From positions 10,533-74,532 of the forward strand of contig JBEKQQ010000027.1 in NCBI GenBank assembly GCA_049519555.1: 64,000 nt of DNA. The letters run 5' to 3'. Made by a program: the position numbers and the translations under genes. The stretch is from Acetobacteraceae bacterium (GTDB lineage Bacteria > Pseudomonadota > Alphaproteobacteria > Acetobacterales > Acetobacteraceae). Positions 21,553 through 55,218 of this stretch are shown here, one piece after another (position 1 is the first letter of the stretch; every line of letters begins with the position of its first letter). The notes below the pieces were generated by a model. That model did no database searches. It was not told where the DNA came from and was given only the letters and a program-made list of their open reading frames with translations.

Positions 21553-21628
21553 GGGGCCGTAGCTCAGTTGGGAGAGCGCCTGAATGGCATTCAGGAGGTC
21601 AGGGGTTCGATTCCCCTCGGCTCCACCA
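21553..21628 (+). tRNA. tRNA-Ala (anticodon GGC)
   Basis: ggggccgtagctcagttgggagagcgcctgaatggcattcaggaggtcaggggttcgattcccctcggctccacca. Cloverleaf with 7-bp acceptor stem including the G3:U70 Ala identity pair, anticodon loop atGGCat, GGTTCGATTCC T-arm, encoded CCA. Confidence 0.95.
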
Positions 21629-48123: not shown

Positions 48124-48351
48124 GCACCGCAAGGATCTTCGACGCGGCGGGCGGCCTCGGGTTTGCCGCCCCCCGCCAGTGGGCTGCGAGCATCCGGCAT
48201 TCAACGGTCGGGTCGGCGAGTGTGCGGCCATTCGCCCAACGGTGACCGAACCGCCGGGTTTGTTTGCCGCCGTCACGGAATCATCGCAGGATGTGCGGTA
48301 TTCGTCGCGTTCGCCGACGCTTACGGCCCGGCCGGTCTGGAGCCACACCCG

Positions 48352-49428
48352 ATGCCCTTCGACTCCCGCCGCATCCACGACGTCCCGGACGACCTGCTCG
48401 CCGCCATCGACTATTGCTACGAGCAAGGCTGGACCGACGGGCTTCCGGTCATCCCTCCGGTGGTCGACCGGGTCGACGCCACGCTCGCCTTCGAGGGCCG
48501 GCCGCCTGAGGCGGTGATCGCCACCCACCCCGCCACCGGCCTGCAACTGACCGTGCACGCCGCCGCGGTCAACGCCGTGATGGCGGGTTGCATGCCGGAG
48601 TATTTCCCGGTTCTGGTCGCCGCGTTCGAGGCCATGGACAAGCCGGACTTCAATTTCCACGGCTCGACCGCCAGCACCGGTGGATCGGCGCCGCTGCTGA
48701 TCGTCAGCGGCCCGGTTGCCGACGACATCGGCATGAACGCGGATGTGAACCTGTTCGGCCCGGGAAACCGGGCGAATGCAACGATTGGCCGCGCGGTGCG
48801 GTTGATCCTGCGGAACGTGTTCCAGATGATCCCGGGCATTTCCGACAAGTCGACGCAGGGCAATCCGGGGAAATACAGCTTCTGTATCGCCGAGCGCTCG
48901 CGTAGCAATCCGTGGCCGTTGTTGTGCGAAACGCAAGACTATCCGCCTGGCGTGTCCAGCGTCACGGTGTTCGCTGCCGGCGGATTCTGCAACGTCGAGA
49001 ACCATGGCGGCAATACGCCCGAACAAATTCTGCTTTCCGTTGCCGACGCCATGGCCAATTACGGCTGCATCACACTGGGCCAGAGCGTCGTCATCCTGTC
49101 GCCCGAGCATATGCGTATCGTTGCCGGCGCCGGATGGAGTCGCTCGGATGCACAGCGTTTTCTGTTTACGCACGCCAAACGGTCCATTGAAGGAATGCAA
49201 TCGGTCGGCAAGTACCGCGACAGCGAATACGACCACCAGCACGGTAGCAACGCGCACGCATTGGCCGAAGCTGGTTTTGTCCATCGCGGCATGACGCCGG
49301 ACGATATCCTGATCACCATGGGCGGCGGGGATGCCGGCGGCCACTCGTGCTTCATTCCGTCGTGGAGCCGGGGCCGCGGTTCAATTTTCCAGCACAAACC
49401 GATCGGGGTGTGCATCGACTGCGTATAG
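48352..49428 (+). CDS. Conserved-looking hypothetical protein (358 aa)
   Basis: ATG at 48352 (MPFDSRRIHDVPDDLLAAIDYCYEQGWTDGLPVIPP...). Well-ordered globular composition. Ends 9 nt before the selenoprotein candidate. No family recognised. Confidence 0.6.
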   Translation: MPFDSRRIHDVPDDLLAAIDYCYEQGWTDGLPVIPPVVDRVDATLAFEGRPPEAVIATHPATGLQLTVHAAAVNAVMAGCMPEYFPVLVAAFEAMDKPDFNFHGSTASTGGSAPLLIVSGPVADDIGMNADVNLFGPGNRANATIGRAVRLILRNVFQMIPGISDKSTQGNPGKYSFCIAERSRSNPWPLLCETQDYPPGVSSVTVFAAGGFCNVENHGGNTPEQILLSVADAMANYGCITLGQSVVILSPEHMRIVAGAGWSRSDAQRFLFTHAKRSIEGMQSVGKYRDSEYDHQHGSNAHALAEAGFVHRGMTPDDILITMGGGDAGGHSCFIPSWSRGRGSIFQHKPIGVCIDCV

Positions 49429-49437
49429 GAGGAACTC

Positions 49438-49959
49438 ATGCGATTATACGACCCGACGTCGTCGGGACCGGAACGGACCTTGTTCCGCGCGCCGCCGTTA
49501 CCTGCGCTGGAGGGCAGGACCATCGGCATCCTGGAAAACAACAAGCTGAACGCTGTGGAAATGCTGCATGAGGTCGCCGCTTTGTTCGAGGCGCGGCATG
49601 GTTGCGTTGTCCGGCCCGTGTATTCGAAGTCGAACGCGAGTGCTCCGGCGCCGGCTGAGGTGCTCGCGAAAGCGGCGGGCGACGTGGATTTTCTGATTAC
49701 CGGGCTTGGCGATTGAGGCTCTTGCTCGACGTGCAGTTTGCATGACGGCATCAGTTTCGAACAGCTTGGCAAAAGGGCGGTGGTGCTGTGCACCGAACCG
49801 TTCGAGGTAACGGCGCGGAATATTGCCCGGATCATGGGGTTGCCGACGTATCCATTCCTGATGGTGCGGCATCCGATCGGCAGTTGCACGTTGCCGGAAC
49901 TGCAGGAACGGGCAGAGGCGGCGTATCGGCAGGCGTTGCCGATTTTACTGGAAGGATGA
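49438..49959 (+). CDS. UGSC-motif selenoprotein candidate (in-frame TGA at 49714..49716 read as Sec)
   Basis: Track ORFs 49438..49716 and 49738..49959 share a frame and are separated only by the TGA. Read-through gives ...DFLITGLGD-U-GSCSTCSLHDGISFEQLGKRAVVLCTEPF... AGGAGGAAC RBS before 49438. A hairpin follows the TGA. Confidence 0.65.
49726..49748 (+). promoter_or_regulatory. SECIS-like hairpin downstream of the in-frame UGA
   Basis: tcgacgtgca-gtt-tgcatgacgg: 9 pairs (including G-U) around one A/A mismatch. The apical GUU lies about 20 nt after the UGA. Confidence 0.45.
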
Positions 49960-50026
49960 GCAGCGGGAGCGGATTGCCATTGAACCGGTGGGGCGACTAC
50001 TTCTAATGTGCCGATGGAGGCCAGCG

Positions 50027-50551
50027 ATGGACCACGACACCCTGTATGAGACCGACATCTGCTCCTGGGCTGAACAGCAGGCGGCGGCGCTACGAGGACT
50101 CACGTCCAGGGTGGACCTCCCAAACGAACTCGATCTGCTGAATGTCATTGAGGAGATCGAAGACGTGGGGATCAGCCAGCTTCGTTCCGTCAGCAGCTTC
50201 ATGCGGCTCATTCTGTCGCACATCATTCTGCTCGCGGTCGACGCCGATGCTGATTCGGTGAACCATTGGACCCGCGAAGTGGCCACGTTTCGTGGCGAGT
50301 TGATGCAGTCCTGGCAACCGAGCATGCGGCGGCGGATCGACATGGACCAGATCTGGCGCCGTGCGGTGGAAGAAGCGACTCTGAAGCTGTCCACTTATCG
50401 CAGGAACGGAATCGCTTTCGATGCGGATGCCATCAGCGGCCGGCTCGGGCCGGTCAGCCTGTTTGGCATCGACGATCTGTGCGGAGAAAGTTTCAGATTT
50501 CATGACCTGCTGGAACGACTCCGGGTGCGGCTTGTCCAGGAGTCGCCCTGA
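50027..50551 (+). CDS. DUF29 family protein
   Basis: ATG at 50027. MDHDTLYETDICSWAEQQAAALRG...LDLLNVIEEIEDVGISQLRSV matches the DUF29 N-terminal pattern (LYE.D...W...Q...L..........N..EEIE..G). Confidence 0.7.
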   Translation: MDHDTLYETDICSWAEQQAAALRGLTSRVDLPNELDLLNVIEEIEDVGISQLRSVSSFMRLILSHIILLAVDADADSVNHWTREVATFRGELMQSWQPSMRRRIDMDQIWRRAVEEATLKLSTYRRNGIAFDADAISGRLGPVSLFGIDDLCGESFRFHDLLERLRVRLVQESP

Positions 50552-50750
50552 TCACCAAGAACTTAGGTCTCGCATCTCATTTTCTTCAGGTCGGTTGCTT
50601 GGCTACCCAAATACCTGTCGCTTGAGCCAATGCATGTGTTGCCAGAATTCTTGCGTCAACTTTCGAGCTGAACGACAGCAGTCAAAAGTTCTTGTTTCCC
50701 GGTAATTCTTCTTACCTTTGGAAACTTACCGTTTGCAGGATGCGTTGTTG

Positions 50751-51876
50751 TCAAGAATGGCGCCGAACACAGCGAAAACCGAGACCGTCACCCCTTAGGC
50801 TTGGGGCGTTCCGATGTCTACATGCTGCACGGACATTCCACGCATCATCAAGCCACGATGCGCCGCGACCAACGCGATCTGCGGCATCGTCACCGGTTCC
50901 TCGGGCAGGCCCGTCGGAATGCGCGCCAGCGTGTCCTCCGTAGTCTCCGTCCGCGCACCACTCCCAGACATTTCCCAGCATATCATAGAGCCCCCACCCA
51001 TTCGGCGCCTTCTGTGCAACTGGATGCGTCTGCTCATCGCTGTTGCCGGACCACCAGGCAATTCGATTTAAGGCAGCCGTTTCGCCACGTTCGTTAACAA
51101 CGGCGGGGCCAGCATATGTCGATGATGTCGTTCCTGCACGACAGGCGTATTCCCACTGCGCCTCTGACGGAAGAGTAAGCGCGAGTCCAGGTTTGAGCGC
51201 GTTCAACGATTCTATAAACCATCGTGTATCATGAAAGGATACGCTCTCCACAGGATGGTTTGGGCCTTGGAAGCGGCTGGGGTTAGTGACCATTACACTG
51301 GTCCACAGGTCCTGGGTTGCTAGGGTTTCAAACATCCAAAATCCTGCACGAAAACTGATTGGCTCGCTGAGGCCTTCATTTTCGAAGCGACCGTTCCCGT
51401 CCGGGGGGGGAACCCATGCGAAAGTCTTGCCCCGGTGGAATCCATCGTAGGCGCTGGGTGACTGTTGTGGAGCCCGTAATAGTCAAGCTAAATGATGCCC
51501 ACGGGCCGACTTCATCTGTTCCAGAATCGTCAGCCCACGAAGATGGGGGGTATTTTTCAGTCGGGAAAATCGCCTCTTCAATCGCCCAGGCTTTATCGAA
51601 TATTGCCTCCTCCAGCCCAATAGATTTTGAAAAATCTGCACCTTTTAATATGGCGCCGGTAAAAATAGTCCCTGCGACATTAGCTCCTGCGAAATCCGCG
51701 CATGTAAAATCAAAACCTCCTAGATTCTCGCCACGAAAATCACCCCCACGGAGATCCCCGTAGCGGAAAGACATACCCGGAGAAAGGCCCGCAATATAGA
51801 CGAGTTCAACAAACGTCTCAACTTTCGAATCAAAAACCTCCCGTACCTTCATTCTGAGTTTATCCGATATATTCAT
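50751..51876 (-). pseudogene. Pentapeptide-repeat / FGE-sulfatase (SUMF1) domain protein, reading frame broken at a G8 (coding-strand C8) homopolymer
   Basis: ORF 51376..51876 gives pentapeptide repeats (DLRGGDFRGENLGGFDFTCADFAGANVAGTIFTGAILKGADFS), then LRWIPPGQDFRMGSPPGRERSLRK*. The other frame, past the run 51403..51410, reads PPPDGNGRFENEGLSEPISFRAGFWMFETLATQDLWTSVMVTNPSRFQG...WEYACRAG...GLYDMLGNVWEW...RGASW...GFRCVR (FGE domain). G7 or G10 would restore a single ORF of about 375 aa. Confidence 0.75.
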
Positions 51877-51942
51877 TTCTCGACATTTGCCTTCATCATA
51901 GACCGCTCAGCCAGAATCACGTGCCTACCTTCCATAGGGCAC

Positions 51943-52986
51943 TCATCCAATATTACTTGTTTGATTAATTATTTCCTTCAAAGTTCTAACCTTTCGCGAT
52001 GTTGCGATATCATTATCTAATGCAGAAACTTCGATCTCATTCTTAGTGGCGGTGACCCTGGCGGTAAATCTTGGCGGTCCCCAAGACAACGGCTCAAGCA
52101 TTGCGACATAATCTTGGTGTGGCAATGCGTCAAAGCTGAGGCCTAGCCGATTATCCAACGGAACGATCTTTCGACCACCTGGGACGAATTCGCCGAAATG
52201 ATCAAATAACTGATAGACCCCCGATCCAATAACACCGCCAAGACCAATCTGGTAGCCCGAAGCGGAAACGGTTAAGTTCGCGCTGGAGAGCGATAATGTT
52301 ATGTCAAGCCGTTCGTCTGGCATTTCAAGTACTGTGTCATGTACGAAAAATCGAAGTGTGGCCTTGATCCCATAGCTACCGGAAGGAGTGTTCCATCTGT
52401 CCGGTTGATGTAGCCTGAACTCAACCATTCGGTCGAAGTCATGCCCTGTGGCCACTAGAAGCCAGTCTTCTGCGGGTTTCCCACGTGTGGTTTCCATACT
52501 CCGCGGAGACAGTATGGTGTCGGCCGACTCTGCTTTAGCCGGTAGGTTTGGCCAACGCACAAGTTCGCGCTGGAGTTCCATCCCAGCCGACAAGGCATTG
52601 TGCACTGATCTACCATTGGCTTCCCTTGATCGACCACGCTTTTCACTCCGGGCGAGGTCACAGGCGGCCTGGAAATCGGCCTTTTGTCGCTGCTCAACTT
52701 CGTCGCCTCTGGCCGCGTTCGGGTAAAACACCTTCAGGAAGGCCTCGACCTTGTCGGGGTCTGGTATCGTTTCGCGACGGAGCCAGTGCCGAAGTGAGTC
52801 CTTGCCAAAATCCTTCTGCCCTGCCGAAGACATTGCCCTAACGAACGCCACAGCATCCCATCCATCTAATGACTGTCCTCGTCCAGGTGGCATGCCCTGG
52901 CCAGTATCATAGCAGACTCTGAACAGGTTCCAGACTTGCGCCTCGGCGGGCGTTTCGGGTTTCCCAGGTTTCCTTGGATTCCGCAC
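51943..52986 (-). CDS. Orphan hypothetical protein (347 aa) in the low-GC island
   Basis: Long ORF in AT-rich DNA, where chance ORFs are unlikely. Lies 66 nt upstream of, and co-directional with, the pentapeptide-FGE gene. No motif recognised. Confidence 0.6.
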   Translation of the reverse strand: MRNPRKPGKPETPAEAQVWNLFRVCYDTGQGMPPGRGQSLDGWDAVAFVRAMSSAGQKDFGKDSLRHWLRRETIPDPDKVEAFLKVFYPNAARGDEVEQRQKADFQAACDLARSEKRGRSREANGRSVHNALSAGMELQRELVRWPNLPAKAESADTILSPRSMETTRGKPAEDWLLVATGHDFDRMVEFRLHQPDRWNTPSGSYGIKATLRFFVHDTVLEMPDERLDITLSLSSANLTVSASGYQIGLGGVIGSGVYQLFDHFGEFVPGGRKIVPLDNRLGLSFDALPHQDYVAMLEPLSWGPPRFTARVTATKNEIEVSALDNDIATSRKVRTLKEIINQTSNIG

Positions 52987-53601
52987 TTACAGGCTAGCCT
53001 TTCCTAGGGTGCTACGCATCGTGGCGATGGCCAATGCCACCGAGAATATCTATCATGCCAAATCCCCACAAGCACCAGTATCTCTTGTGTGCCGTCGCTC
53101 ATTTTGCGCTGGCGATCGCGACATTTGAGCACGGGCTTCCAATCGCACTTGCGGAGCTATTGGTCGCATCGATCTATATCGATCTCGCGATCCGATGAGC
53201 TCAAACCTGCACGCCGGGGCTGCTACCTTCCATTTTGTAGCCTTTTATGGTTCTTGCCTCATCCGACCTCGAATCTGTTTGGGGCACAAGATCTCGCCCT
53301 AATTCACACCTCAACTTGCTGCTTGCAGTTGATTTACCTGAAGTATTTCGGTCTATATGGGTGGTATTATGTCAGCTGATCGCCTCGGCGGATTTTGTTG
53401 TTCCGGATGTTGTCCGCCGCTGGACGGTGGCGAACCGTTTATCTGGGCCTTTCACACGACTTTCTGTGATGCGGCAACTCTCCGCGTCAGCCTGAGTCCG
53501 GCTGACCACCGTGCCCCACTTCCAGCGCACTGCCAAACCACGATACCCTCTGTCAACAACCGGCCCAATCGGCCAACCCACACACCCCGGGGAGAACGGA
53601 C

Positions 53602-55218
53602 ATGCAAGCAGACTACGTCATCGTCGGTGCCGGCTCCGCCGGCTGCGTCCTCGCCAACCGCCTCACCGAGGACCCCACGATCAATGTCATCCTAATCGAG
53701 GCCGGCGGACGCGACCGCAACCCGCTCATCCACATCCCCGCCGGCTTCTTCAAAATGCTCGACCACGACACGCTGACCTGGAAATACCGCTCCGAGCCCG
53801 ACCCCGGCACCAACGGCCGCGCCATCAACTACACCCGCGGCAAAGTGATCGGCGGCTCCTCCTCGATCAACGGCCTCATCTACATCCGCGGCCAACCCGA
53901 GGACTACGATCACTGGGCTCAGCTCGGCAACCGCGGCTGGTCGTGGGACGATTGCCTGCCGTTCTTCCGCAAAGCCGAACGCTGGGAAGGCGAAGGCAGC
54001 GACGTGCGCGGCAAGGACGGCCCATTGTTCACCTCTAAAATCGACCGCTCGCCGATTTGCGCGCAAGTGGTCGAGGCCGGCAAGCAGCTTGGTCTGGAAT
54101 ACCGCGAGGACCTCAACGACCTGCCGCCAGGCCACACCGACTGCATCGGCTGGTGCCAGCAGACCCGTGGTGGCCGCCGCCGAGCCAGTGCCGCCCGCAC
54201 CTACCTGCACCCCGCCCTGAAACGACCCAACCTGCAACTCATCACCAACGCACTGGTGCATCGCATCCTGTTCGACGGCAAACGCGCCACCGGCATCGAA
54301 CTTTCCCGCGGCGGCGGCACCACCGAAACGATAACGGCAACAAGGGAAACCATCCTCTCAGCCGGCGCAGTCGGCTCGCCCCTCATCCTGCAACTATCGG
54401 GTGTCGGCGACCCCGACCACCTCGGCACCATCGGCGTCCCCGTGCTGCATGAAATGCGCGGCGTCGGCCGCAACATGCAGGACCACTACACCGCCCGCGT
54501 GTCGTATCCCGTCGTCGGCATGGCCACCGCCAACGAAAAGTCCCGCGGCATTCCGCTCGCCGTCGAGGTCGTCCGTTGGGCGCTCACCGGCAAGGGCATG
54601 TTGAGTTACAGCCCGTCGCTGGTCGCCGCATCGGTGAAAGTGCTGGAAACGTCTGCCACCCCCGACATGCAGGTCACCTTCGCCCCCGGCAGCTTCAAGG
54701 GCGGCCAGATCGGCGAGCTGGAGGAAACCCCCGGCCTCAGCGCCGGTGCCTGGCAGATGCGTCCACTTTCGCGCGGCTACGTCGAGGCGCGGTCGAGCCG
54801 GCCGGGCGACATGCCGGCGATCAACCCGCGTTACCTCTCCGACGAATCCGATCGCCGCGCCATCATCGGCGGGTTGCGTTTCGCACGGAAGCTGTTCGAG
54901 GCACCGGCGCTGAAACAATACGTCCGCGAGGAAACCCTGCCCGGCCGCGACATCCAGACCGACGATGAACTGCTCGATTATGCGCGGCGTAACGGCGGCA
55001 CCTGCTACCACGCAAGCTGCACTTGCATGATGGGCACGCACCCGATGAGCGTGGTCGACAGTCAGTTGCGCGTGCACGGTCTCGACGGGTTGCGGGTGAT
55101 CGATGCCTCGGTCATGCCGGCGGTCACCTCGACCAACACCAATGCGCCGACCATCATGATCGCCGAGCAAGGTGCGGCGATGCTCAAGCAGGCGACACGA
55201 CAAAAACTGGCGGCGTAA
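53602..55218 (+). CDS. GMC-family FAD oxidoreductase (choline dehydrogenase-like)
   Basis: MQADYVIVGAGSAGCVLANRLTEDP...GGSSSINGLIYIRG...C-terminal HASCTCMMG...VIDASVMP. Confidence 0.9.
   Translation: MQADYVIVGAGSAGCVLANRLTEDPTINVILIEAGGRDRNPLIHIPAGFFKMLDHDTLTWKYRSEPDPGTNGRAINYTRGKVIGGSSSINGLIYIRGQPEDYDHWAQLGNRGWSWDDCLPFFRKAERWEGEGSDVRGKDGPLFTSKIDRSPICAQVVEAGKQLGLEYREDLNDLPPGHTDCIGWCQQTRGGRRRASAARTYLHPALKRPNLQLITNALVHRILFDGKRATGIELSRGGGTTETITATRETILSAGAVGSPLILQLSGVGDPDHLGTIGVPVLHEMRGVGRNMQDHYTARVSYPVVGMATANEKSRGIPLAVEVVRWALTGKGMLSYSPSLVAASVKVLETSATPDMQVTFAPGSFKGGQIGELEETPGLSAGAWQMRPLSRGYVEARSSRPGDMPAINPRYLSDESDRRAIIGGLRFARKLFEAPALKQYVREETLPGRDIQTDDELLDYARRNGGTCYHASCTCMMGTHPMSVVDSQLRVHGLDGLRVIDASVMPAVTSTNTNAPTIMIAEQGAAMLKQATRQKLAA

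Follow-up and report, generated by a model that had tools for sequence, protein, structure and literature searches.

What kind of element is the low-GC island that separates a DUF29 gene from a GMC oxidoreductase gene in an Acetobacteraceae bacterium, and is it a working system? The island lies in a 64-kb stretch of contig JBEKQQ010000027.1 (positions 10,533 to 74,532; hereafter the window, whose numbering is used unless another locus is named). An initial annotation, made from the sequence letters and a list of open reading frames (ORFs), had described it as perhaps a horizontally acquired two-gene cassette of unknown function, consisting of a 347-amino-acid (aa) orphan and a single pentapeptide-repeat/FGE-domain gene. 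In our view, the island is probably a horizontally acquired and orphaned target cassette of a diversity-generating retroelement (DGR), which carries no reverse transcriptase, does not diversify and is decaying, and is not a working system. This view follows from three observations: the lack of a reverse transcriptase, an HRDC accessory gene and a template repeat in the window; the fixed truncation of the 347-aa gene, hereafter the partner gene; and the frameshift in the lectin gene that carries the FGE domain. On this reading the island is decaying foreign DNA, which should be annotated as two pseudogenes and one small ORF. The features concerned are the following.

50552..53496, no strand: inserted low-GC island, from the DUF29 stop codon to the region upstream of the GMC gene (homology break in the relative L013, and G+C content)
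50751..51876, minus strand: pentapeptide-repeat and FGE-sulfatase/C-type-lectin pseudogene (ORFs 51376-51876 and 50751-51335)
50754..50887, minus strand: equivalent of the DGR variable region, at the 3' end of the FGE domain (aligns with the variable regions of loci L099 and L095)
51403..51410, minus strand: poly-C tract (C8 on the coding strand), source of a +1 frameshift (the frame switches inside the run)
51873..51971, minus strand: frameshifted ancestral 3' end of the 347-aa gene (the alternative frame encodes '...LDECPMEGRHVILAERSMMKANVEK')
51943..52986, minus strand: 347-aa ORF with a helical N-domain, a linker and an all-beta C-domain (phmmer family and AlphaFold 2 model)
53055..53198, plus strand: divergently transcribed 47-aa hydrophobic ORF, MPNPHKHQYLLCAVAHFALAIATFEHGLPIALAELLVASIYIDLAIR (gene calls and tblastn)

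An insertion at a variable intergenic site

The segment 50552-53560 has a G+C content of 52.8%, compared with 61.4% over the whole window, and the lowest-G+C 3-kb stretch of the 64 kb falls inside it; among 1-kb windows (mean 61.4%, sd 2.9%), the minimum of 47.8% is found at 51501-52500. The hand counts that had drawn attention to the island (18, 30 and 41 G+C of 60) are exact, and the abrupt drop behind the DUF29 gene is confirmed by sliding-window G+C and by the G+C content at third codon positions (GC3), which ranges over 0.44-0.52 for the ORFs of the island and over 0.72-0.83 for the neighbouring DUF29, GMC, DUF7700, glyoxalase and isochorismatase genes. The immediate flanks, the DUF29 gene on the left and the GMC oxidoreductase gene on the right, were assigned with Pfam.

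Comparison with relatives, which the initial annotation had named as the way to establish presence or absence and exact boundaries, places the borders at 50549 and ~53497. The synteny of DUF29 and GMC is kept in two relatives, L012 and L013. In L013 the site is empty: homology stops at window position 50549 and restarts at ~53497, and the gap between the two genes is ~130 bp. At the same site, L012 carries an unlike 2.1-kb insert with three unrelated ORFs (L012:7029-9070). Because the site is empty in one relative and occupied by a different insert in the other, it behaves as an insertion hotspot, and the island is therefore a ~2.9-kb insertion at a variable intergenic site. The horizontal acquisition proposed earlier is thus supported by the relatives as well as by the atypical composition. 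The homologous cassettes described below have a G+C content like that of their surroundings in other hosts, and therefore the donor of the window copy was a lower-GC organism that is absent from the databases. As a side observation, the L012 insert comprises a 302-aa ORF on the minus strand, a 168-aa SnoaL-like ORF and a 127-aa DUF433-like ORF, the last two recognized by eye and not profile-tested.

Ten metagenome contigs (L001-L009 and L098), which are 99.3-99.9% identical to the window, share the island and its flanks and represent one population, seen in several samples. Against species-representative genomes, the best match of the GMC protein has 89% aa identity, and the relatives are labelled as Acetobacteraceae or Stellaceae metagenome-assembled genomes (MAGs), which places the host among the uncultured alphaproteobacteria.

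The means of insertion has left little trace. No integrase or transposase ORF was found in the island, and no tRNA lies near it (the sole tRNA of the window is tRNA-Ala at 21553-21628), just as had been noted before. The accompanying statement that there is no flanking direct repeat holds in that none is clear, although both junctions show, by eye, an imperfect 10-nt similarity, CTGAYCACC (CTGATCACCA at 50545-50556 and CTGACCACCG at 53500-53510). This similarity could be a target duplication or microhomology, and it is short enough to have arisen by chance. In other words, the classical hallmarks of an island or mobile element (integrase/transposase, tRNA target, flanking direct repeats) were not found here, though presence/absence polymorphism is evident.

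Homologous cassettes and their retroelements

What had been annotated as a single pentapeptide/FGE gene is in fact two ORFs, split by a frameshift in the poly-C tract. The 5' ORF (51376-51876) covers the pentapeptide repeats together with the beginning of the FGE domain; PF00805 matches it at residues 56-84 with 33 bits (cut-off 20.2, E=4e-8). The 3' ORF (50751-51335) matches positions 74-255 of the 255 positions of PF03781 (E=1e-34). The pentapeptide stretch is only ~50-60 residues long and is fused to the lectin domain, and no signal peptide or lipobox is seen by inspection. The nearest non-self homologue of the lectin protein, held by L099, shows 52-54% identity. Among solved structures, the best sequence relative of the FGE domain is TvpA (2y3c), the variable protein of a Treponema DGR (E=1.4e-19), and the closest solved relatives, TvpA and PvdO, are non-enzymatic. 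When the window protein is aligned with human FGE (2aft), it shows a 3-residue gap and no cysteine in place of the loop that we take to carry the two catalytic cysteines. With TvpA as the best relative and this loop deleted, the lectin domain is a binding domain and not an enzyme, in line with the binding or sensor module that the initial annotation had seen in it.

Metagenome loci were gathered by a scan with a pentapeptide-FGE alignment (A3). In all 11 independent loci examined (the window, L010/L011, L092, L093/L094, L095, L096 with two cassettes, L097, L099, L105, L108 and the contig of P0128), a match to the hidden Markov model (HMM) of the 347-aa family lies directly upstream of a pentapeptide-FGE HMM match that begins at position 1, and in the homologues the two genes usually overlap by 4 nt (ATGA). 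The 347-aa protein is no orphan: with the window's own member counted, an exhaustive phmmer search brought up 29 proteins at E<=0.001, which are ~31% identical and ~310-350 aa long. The family surfaced only in this exhaustive search, since a word-indexed search returned the protein itself alone when started with the 347-aa sequence and three proteins when started with the family alignment.

The pairing of two genes thus stood up to the comparison, and a third, small gene had been overlooked. The ~600 nt on the right side of the island, earlier described as non-coding, contain the conserved 47-aa ORF (53055-53198), which was called as a gene in L003, L004, L007 and L008. A 64-aa ORF upstream of the P0123 cassette (L092) matches it in tblastn (43% identity over 46 aa, E=4e-7); the equivalent divergent position is taken by small hydrophobic ORFs in L010, in L095 and in both L096 cassettes, and by an 86-aa gene in the P0128 contig, where the correspondence is one of position only.

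The cassette is variable in its details. L105 is a fusion lacking the pentapeptide part and L108 carries two lectin domains, and in L093:1504-2226 and L094:1503-2066 (P0129) the pentapeptide N-terminal module is kept while a Ros/MucR zinc-finger DNA-binding domain replaces the lectin domain. Two tandem cassettes without reverse transcriptase lie beside a Uma2 endonuclease-like gene and an ATP synthase operon in L096:3566-8182.

A DGR reverse-transcribes a template with errors that are specific to adenines and puts the resulting copy in place of the variable region, by which the ligand-binding surface is rewritten. To our knowledge, DGRs are the only known prokaryotic systems of targeted protein hypermutation, and we know of no role for most of their cellular targets. 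The kind of cassette, which the initial annotation could not name, is indicated by the homologues, several of which contain such machinery. On the P0128 contig, the order is partner, pentapeptide-FGE gene (P0045), HRDC gene and RVT_1 reverse transcriptase. In L095, which comes from the same Baikal MAG as L012, the order is partner, pentapeptide-FGE gene, HRDC gene, split reverse transcriptase and a 135-nt repeat of the FGE 3' end; in this pair of variable region and template repeat, 22 of 29 adenines are changed, and the translation of the repeat is rich in Asn (RGGSWNNEARNARAACRNQNDPANRNNDVGFRCAR). The corresponding pair in L099 is 127 nt long and 89% identical, with 15 of its 17 mismatches at template adenines (by template base, 15/27 A, 1/40 C, 1/50 G and 0/16 T). 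Adenine-specific mismatch is the signature of DGR mutagenic retrohoming (PMC5758913). L108 has two variable regions and an A-rich template repeat, the reverse transcriptase of L103 bears IGxxxSQ-type and YMDD motifs, and an HRDC gene and/or a reverse transcriptase is found near ~20 of 80 loci with FGE homologues. In L096, the variable regions have one identical scaffold and differ only at discrete codons, and the gene bodies are only 79% identical; this pattern would imply a shared, distant template repeat.

The window protein carries the same C-terminal design. Across 24 aligned full-length homologues, hypervariable positions are set in an otherwise constant C-terminal scaffold, and at these positions the window protein differs from the others; the last ~40 residues share the scaffold RV.RGGSW..AR.VRAACR....P..R...LGFRC, and the residues that vary among homologues coincide with the Asn-codon positions of the L095 and L099 template repeats. 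Judged by homology, these comparisons show that the lectin gene belongs to a DGR-target family.

TvpA-like FGE/lectin targets, HRDC-type DGRs and remote targets are already known (PMC5758913, PMC7159879, PMC10907252). The Treponema denticola TvpA-type DGR has architecture C with an HRDC accessory gene and a category b target, whose CLec1 variable region lies in an FGE-sulfatase domain (Wu et al. 2018). The present family resembles it in having the variable region at the extreme C-terminus of an FGE-type C-type-lectin domain, and in homologous cassettes with HRDC gene, reverse transcriptase and template repeat with adenine-specific mismatches. It is unlike the TvpA-type DGR in that the target has an N-terminal helix and a pentapeptide module and, by inspection, no signal peptide or lipobox, that it is always preceded by a ~320-aa uncharacterized gene and a divergent small hydrophobic ORF, and that the window copy is without reverse transcriptase, HRDC gene and template repeat. 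A limited check of the DGR literature found no mention of an obligatory upstream partner, a pentapeptide N-terminal target module or a small divergent ORF. The cassette family adds these three components to the known type of DGR target, of which the window copy is a degenerate example, and it makes a compact DGR case, in which an obligatory partner of unknown fold family is translationally coupled to the lectin receptor.

The DGR cassette of L095 also adjoins a GMC oxidoreductase gene and a DDE transposase (L095:10810-13509). We considered the GMC gene as a member of the cassette and rejected it: the L095 GMC gene is a 68%-identical paralogue and is convergent, not divergent, and the neighbourhood common to L095 and the window looks coincidental.

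Condition of the window copy

None of the diversifying machinery is present in the window. No ORF with a YxDD or IGxxxSQ motif and no tblastn match to five HRDC/reverse transcriptase queries was found in the 64 kb, which also hold no match to the HRDC accessory gene and no template repeat: outside the gene itself, the FGE 3' end finds at best a 22-nt match (E=0.013). The FGE stop codon is only 200 bp away from the DUF29 gene. In addition, the variable-region equivalent is static: it is identical in the window and in the seven contigs that cover it (L002-L008), with no single-nucleotide polymorphism (SNP) between 50687 and 51396 and zero differences over 50766-51396, and the sole differences nearby are at the extreme end of one contig. 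At least seven separate samples or assemblies contributed these contigs, and there is no sign of ongoing diversification among them in what is an assembly-level comparison only.

Related cassettes share this trend toward loss of the diversifier. The reverse transcriptase is frameshifted and split in L095 (L095:8923-9950); in L099 it is fused to HRDC and its N-terminal half is missing (L099:1673-2767); L108 has kept a template repeat (L108:9047-9166) with no reverse transcriptase within 5.7 kb; and L096 has neither of the two. This series of loci, from intact through damaged to absent reverse transcriptase, documents the orphaning of DGR targets after horizontal transfer, and the window copy would be an orphaned fossil.

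Both large genes of the island are frameshifted. In the partner gene, the GTG start at 52986 is supported by the alignment of residues 11-31 with the conserved N-terminus of the family, in which a conserved N-terminal region is followed by a variable linker, a conserved C-terminal region and the terminal motif D..GR.ILA...M.R. The 347-aa protein lacks this motif, whose codons lie immediately behind the stop codon in a different frame. Removal of one nt at ~51965-51971 yields a protein of 370 aa ending in ...GRHVILAERSMMKANVEK, restores the motif and improves the match to the family HMM from 265 bits to 279; the repaired frame ends in a TGA that overlaps the ATG of the next gene (ATGA), as in the homologues. 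Since the population contigs show no indel difference at this 3' end, the truncation is fixed in the population.

The lectin gene is likewise repaired by a single change, the deletion of one C from the poly-C tract giving a protein of 374 aa. It matches P0002, an intact 366-aa gene called in eight population contigs, at a listed identity of 100%, yet one residue differs (D-E-N vs D-G-N). Three tract alleles are present: C7 in L002-L009, C8 in the window and L001, and C9 in L098. The C8 and C9 alleles are linked to a SNP at 51397, and C8 also to one at 51439; C7 is found only on the other haplotype.

Possible function and competing explanations

The profile and structure searches recommended earlier for the 347-aa protein brought neither a Pfam or PDB match nor a significant Foldseek match, yet remote homologues do exist. 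The family has no match in Pfam (all members scanned), in PDB sequences (profile search), in PADLOC or in PHROGs. Modelled by AlphaFold 2 with the family alignment, the protein has a mean pLDDT of 80 and consists of a helical N-domain and, after a disordered linker, an all-beta C-domain with a helix behind it; the N-domain modelled alone reaches a pLDDT of 88.7. Foldseek comparisons of the full model with PDB and viral libraries, and of the N-domain with PDB, gave nothing at E<0.001. Among the weaker matches of the N-domain, XRE-type proteins recur (2kpj with a probability of 0.96, ClgR, EspR, HigA and C.Esp1396I), all at E>0.3, and Pfam has no helix-turn-helix (HTH) match for this domain. The recurrence of XRE-type matches favours a DNA-binding regulatory role for the partner, which is the most likely prediction though an unproven one. 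The Ros/MucR variant of the neighbouring gene points to the same role.

How might an intact cassette have worked? It would comprise a divergently encoded small hydrophobic protein, a partner of ~320-370 aa with a helical N-domain, possibly an XRE-type HTH, and a beta-sandwich C-domain, and, directly downstream, a presumably cytoplasmic lectin protein in which an N-terminal helix is joined to a pentapeptide-repeat beta-helix and to an FGE-type C-type-lectin domain without catalytic function. In relatives, the last ~130 nt of the lectin domain form a DGR variable region, and so far as those alignments go, the protein may be a diversifiable intracellular sensor of ligands. Its pentapeptide module may dock on the upstream partner, as the 4-nt ATGA translational coupling in homologues suggests, and the output would be regulatory, through the HTH-like domain of the partner. 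Such an output is also indicated by the obligatory coupling and by the loci in which Ros/MucR stands in place of the lectin domain.

Several points weigh against our account of the island as an orphaned, decaying target cassette, or against the function just outlined. The HTH assignment is weak, as every Foldseek match has E>0.3, and the path from sensor to regulator is an inference. The variable-region DNA of the window is too diverged from foreign template repeats to display adenine-specific changes, and its status as a variable region rests on homology and on the varying positions in the protein alignment. The intact C7 allele is carried by most population contigs, so that most cells may still produce the lectin protein; the differences in poly-C length among short-read assemblies could be partly technical. 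Finally, the search covered 64 kb of the host genome, and a DGR may act in trans from elsewhere in it.

A bolder version of the functional idea, which we consider doubtful but worth stating, is that the trio constitutes an undescribed DGR-diversified intracellular sensor-regulator. Its members would be a small membrane peptide, an HTH-like/beta-sandwich protein without Pfam or PDB relatives and a pentapeptide-repeat-lectin protein, and the hypervariable lectin would be coupled, via the pentapeptide beta-helix, to a DNA-binding partner. The reverse transcriptase would be lost recurrently once a useful variant had been fixed, an idea based on its damage or absence in L095, L099, L108, L096 and the window. 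Pentapeptide repeats form a right-handed beta-helix that is able to mimic DNA. Like the DNA mimics MfpA and Qnr, the window protein has a PF00805 stretch; unlike them, it has a short one fused to a lectin domain, and no link to gyrase was found. It is a matter of speculation that the pentapeptide module mimics DNA toward an HTH-like partner.

Somewhat less probable still is an active remote target, in which the lectin gene of C7 strains would be diversified in trans by a DGR located elsewhere in the chromosome. There are documented cases of trans activity and of remote targets at distances above 100 kb (PMC5758913, PMC10907252), the L096 pair with its identical scaffold fits one distant template repeat, and the lectin gene is intact in 8 of the 11 population sequences (ten contigs and the window). 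Set against this, the variable-region equivalent is identical in the window and seven contigs, the partner gene is truncated in all of these, and the reverse transcriptase has been repeatedly lost or damaged in the related L095, L099 and L108. The window copy is like remote or orphan DGR targets (Wu et al. 2018; Thiohalocapsa PB-PSB1, PMC10907252) in having a target gene without a reverse transcriptase in cis, and L096 shows that the family can exist as targets without reverse transcriptase that share one variable-region scaffold; it is unlike them in that its population shows no diversification, both large genes are frameshifted and no matching template repeat is known.

An anti-phage or conflict system, in which the lectin/pentapeptide protein senses an invader and the partner triggers the response, is rather unlikely, although the initial annotation had leaned toward such a link. 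DGR-diversified FGE-type lectins are described as conflict-system domains in sensor or effector positions (PMC7159879, PMC10907252), the insertion site is variable, and the P0128 cassette adjoins a BrnT toxin and an HTH gene. Moreover, the close FGE-domain homologues P0067, P0090 and P0121 each have a TIR domain (PF13676) as a fusion partner, an indication that conflict systems include some of the relatives. On the other hand, the 347-aa protein, two of its homologues and the repaired pentapeptide-FGE protein have no match to a known defence system in PADLOC-DB v2 at E<=1, PHROGs has none for the partner, the cassette has no recognizable effector domain (nuclease, TIR, protease, NTPase or pore former), and the window copy is frameshifted. 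The DGR-linked FGS conflict sensors (Kaur, Burroughs, Iyer and Aravind 2020) are comparable in that FGE/FGS is always C-terminal to variable modules, among which pentapeptide repeats occur. They differ in that the cassette is without MoxR, vWA, STAND NTPase and effector-associated domains, and in that the host of the window is an alphaproteobacterium, not a cyanobacterium or actinobacterium.

The coexistence of C7, C8 and C9 in one population of ~99.7-99.9% identity could also suggest a phase-variable contingency gene, switched by slipped-strand mispairing in the poly-C tract, an explanation to which we give very little weight. C8 and C9 are confined to the 51397 haplotype and C7 to the other, a linkage that fits one old frameshift followed by drift and not frequent switching; homopolymer length is error-prone in short-read assemblies; and no such tract is conserved in the homologues, whose consensus at this position is MGSPxDE. 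That the gene encodes a true formylglycine-generating enzyme or serves in sulfatase maturation, and that its neighbour is unrelated to it, as the PF03781 match and the name 'formylglycine-generating enzyme' given to homologues in source databases might suggest, is next to impossible, since the presumed catalytic-cysteine loop is a cysteine-free gap, the nearest solved relatives are non-enzymatic and no sulfatase gene is nearby.

The rest of the right side of the island, which lies beyond the small divergent ORF, is one further feature.

53199..53496, no strand: remaining non-coding island DNA (no Rfam match at E<=1, no conserved ORF)

A search of 50000-54000 with Rfam found nothing, and promoter and terminator scans remained at chance level. 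Two observations concern the DNA to the left of the island. At 49602-49704, a stretch that codes for UGSC-domain (PF24696) genes, L002 has 17 clustered differences from the window, compared with ~99.9% identity over the remainder of this contig, and the cluster may be due to recombination between tandem UGSC paralogues or to an assembly chimera. In the uncertainly annotated stretch 48163-49889, long ORFs that match nothing in Pfam overlap on both strands, whereas the gene calls of the population contigs give a 358-aa gene, for which Pfam likewise has no match, together with one or two small genes that encode UGSC domains.

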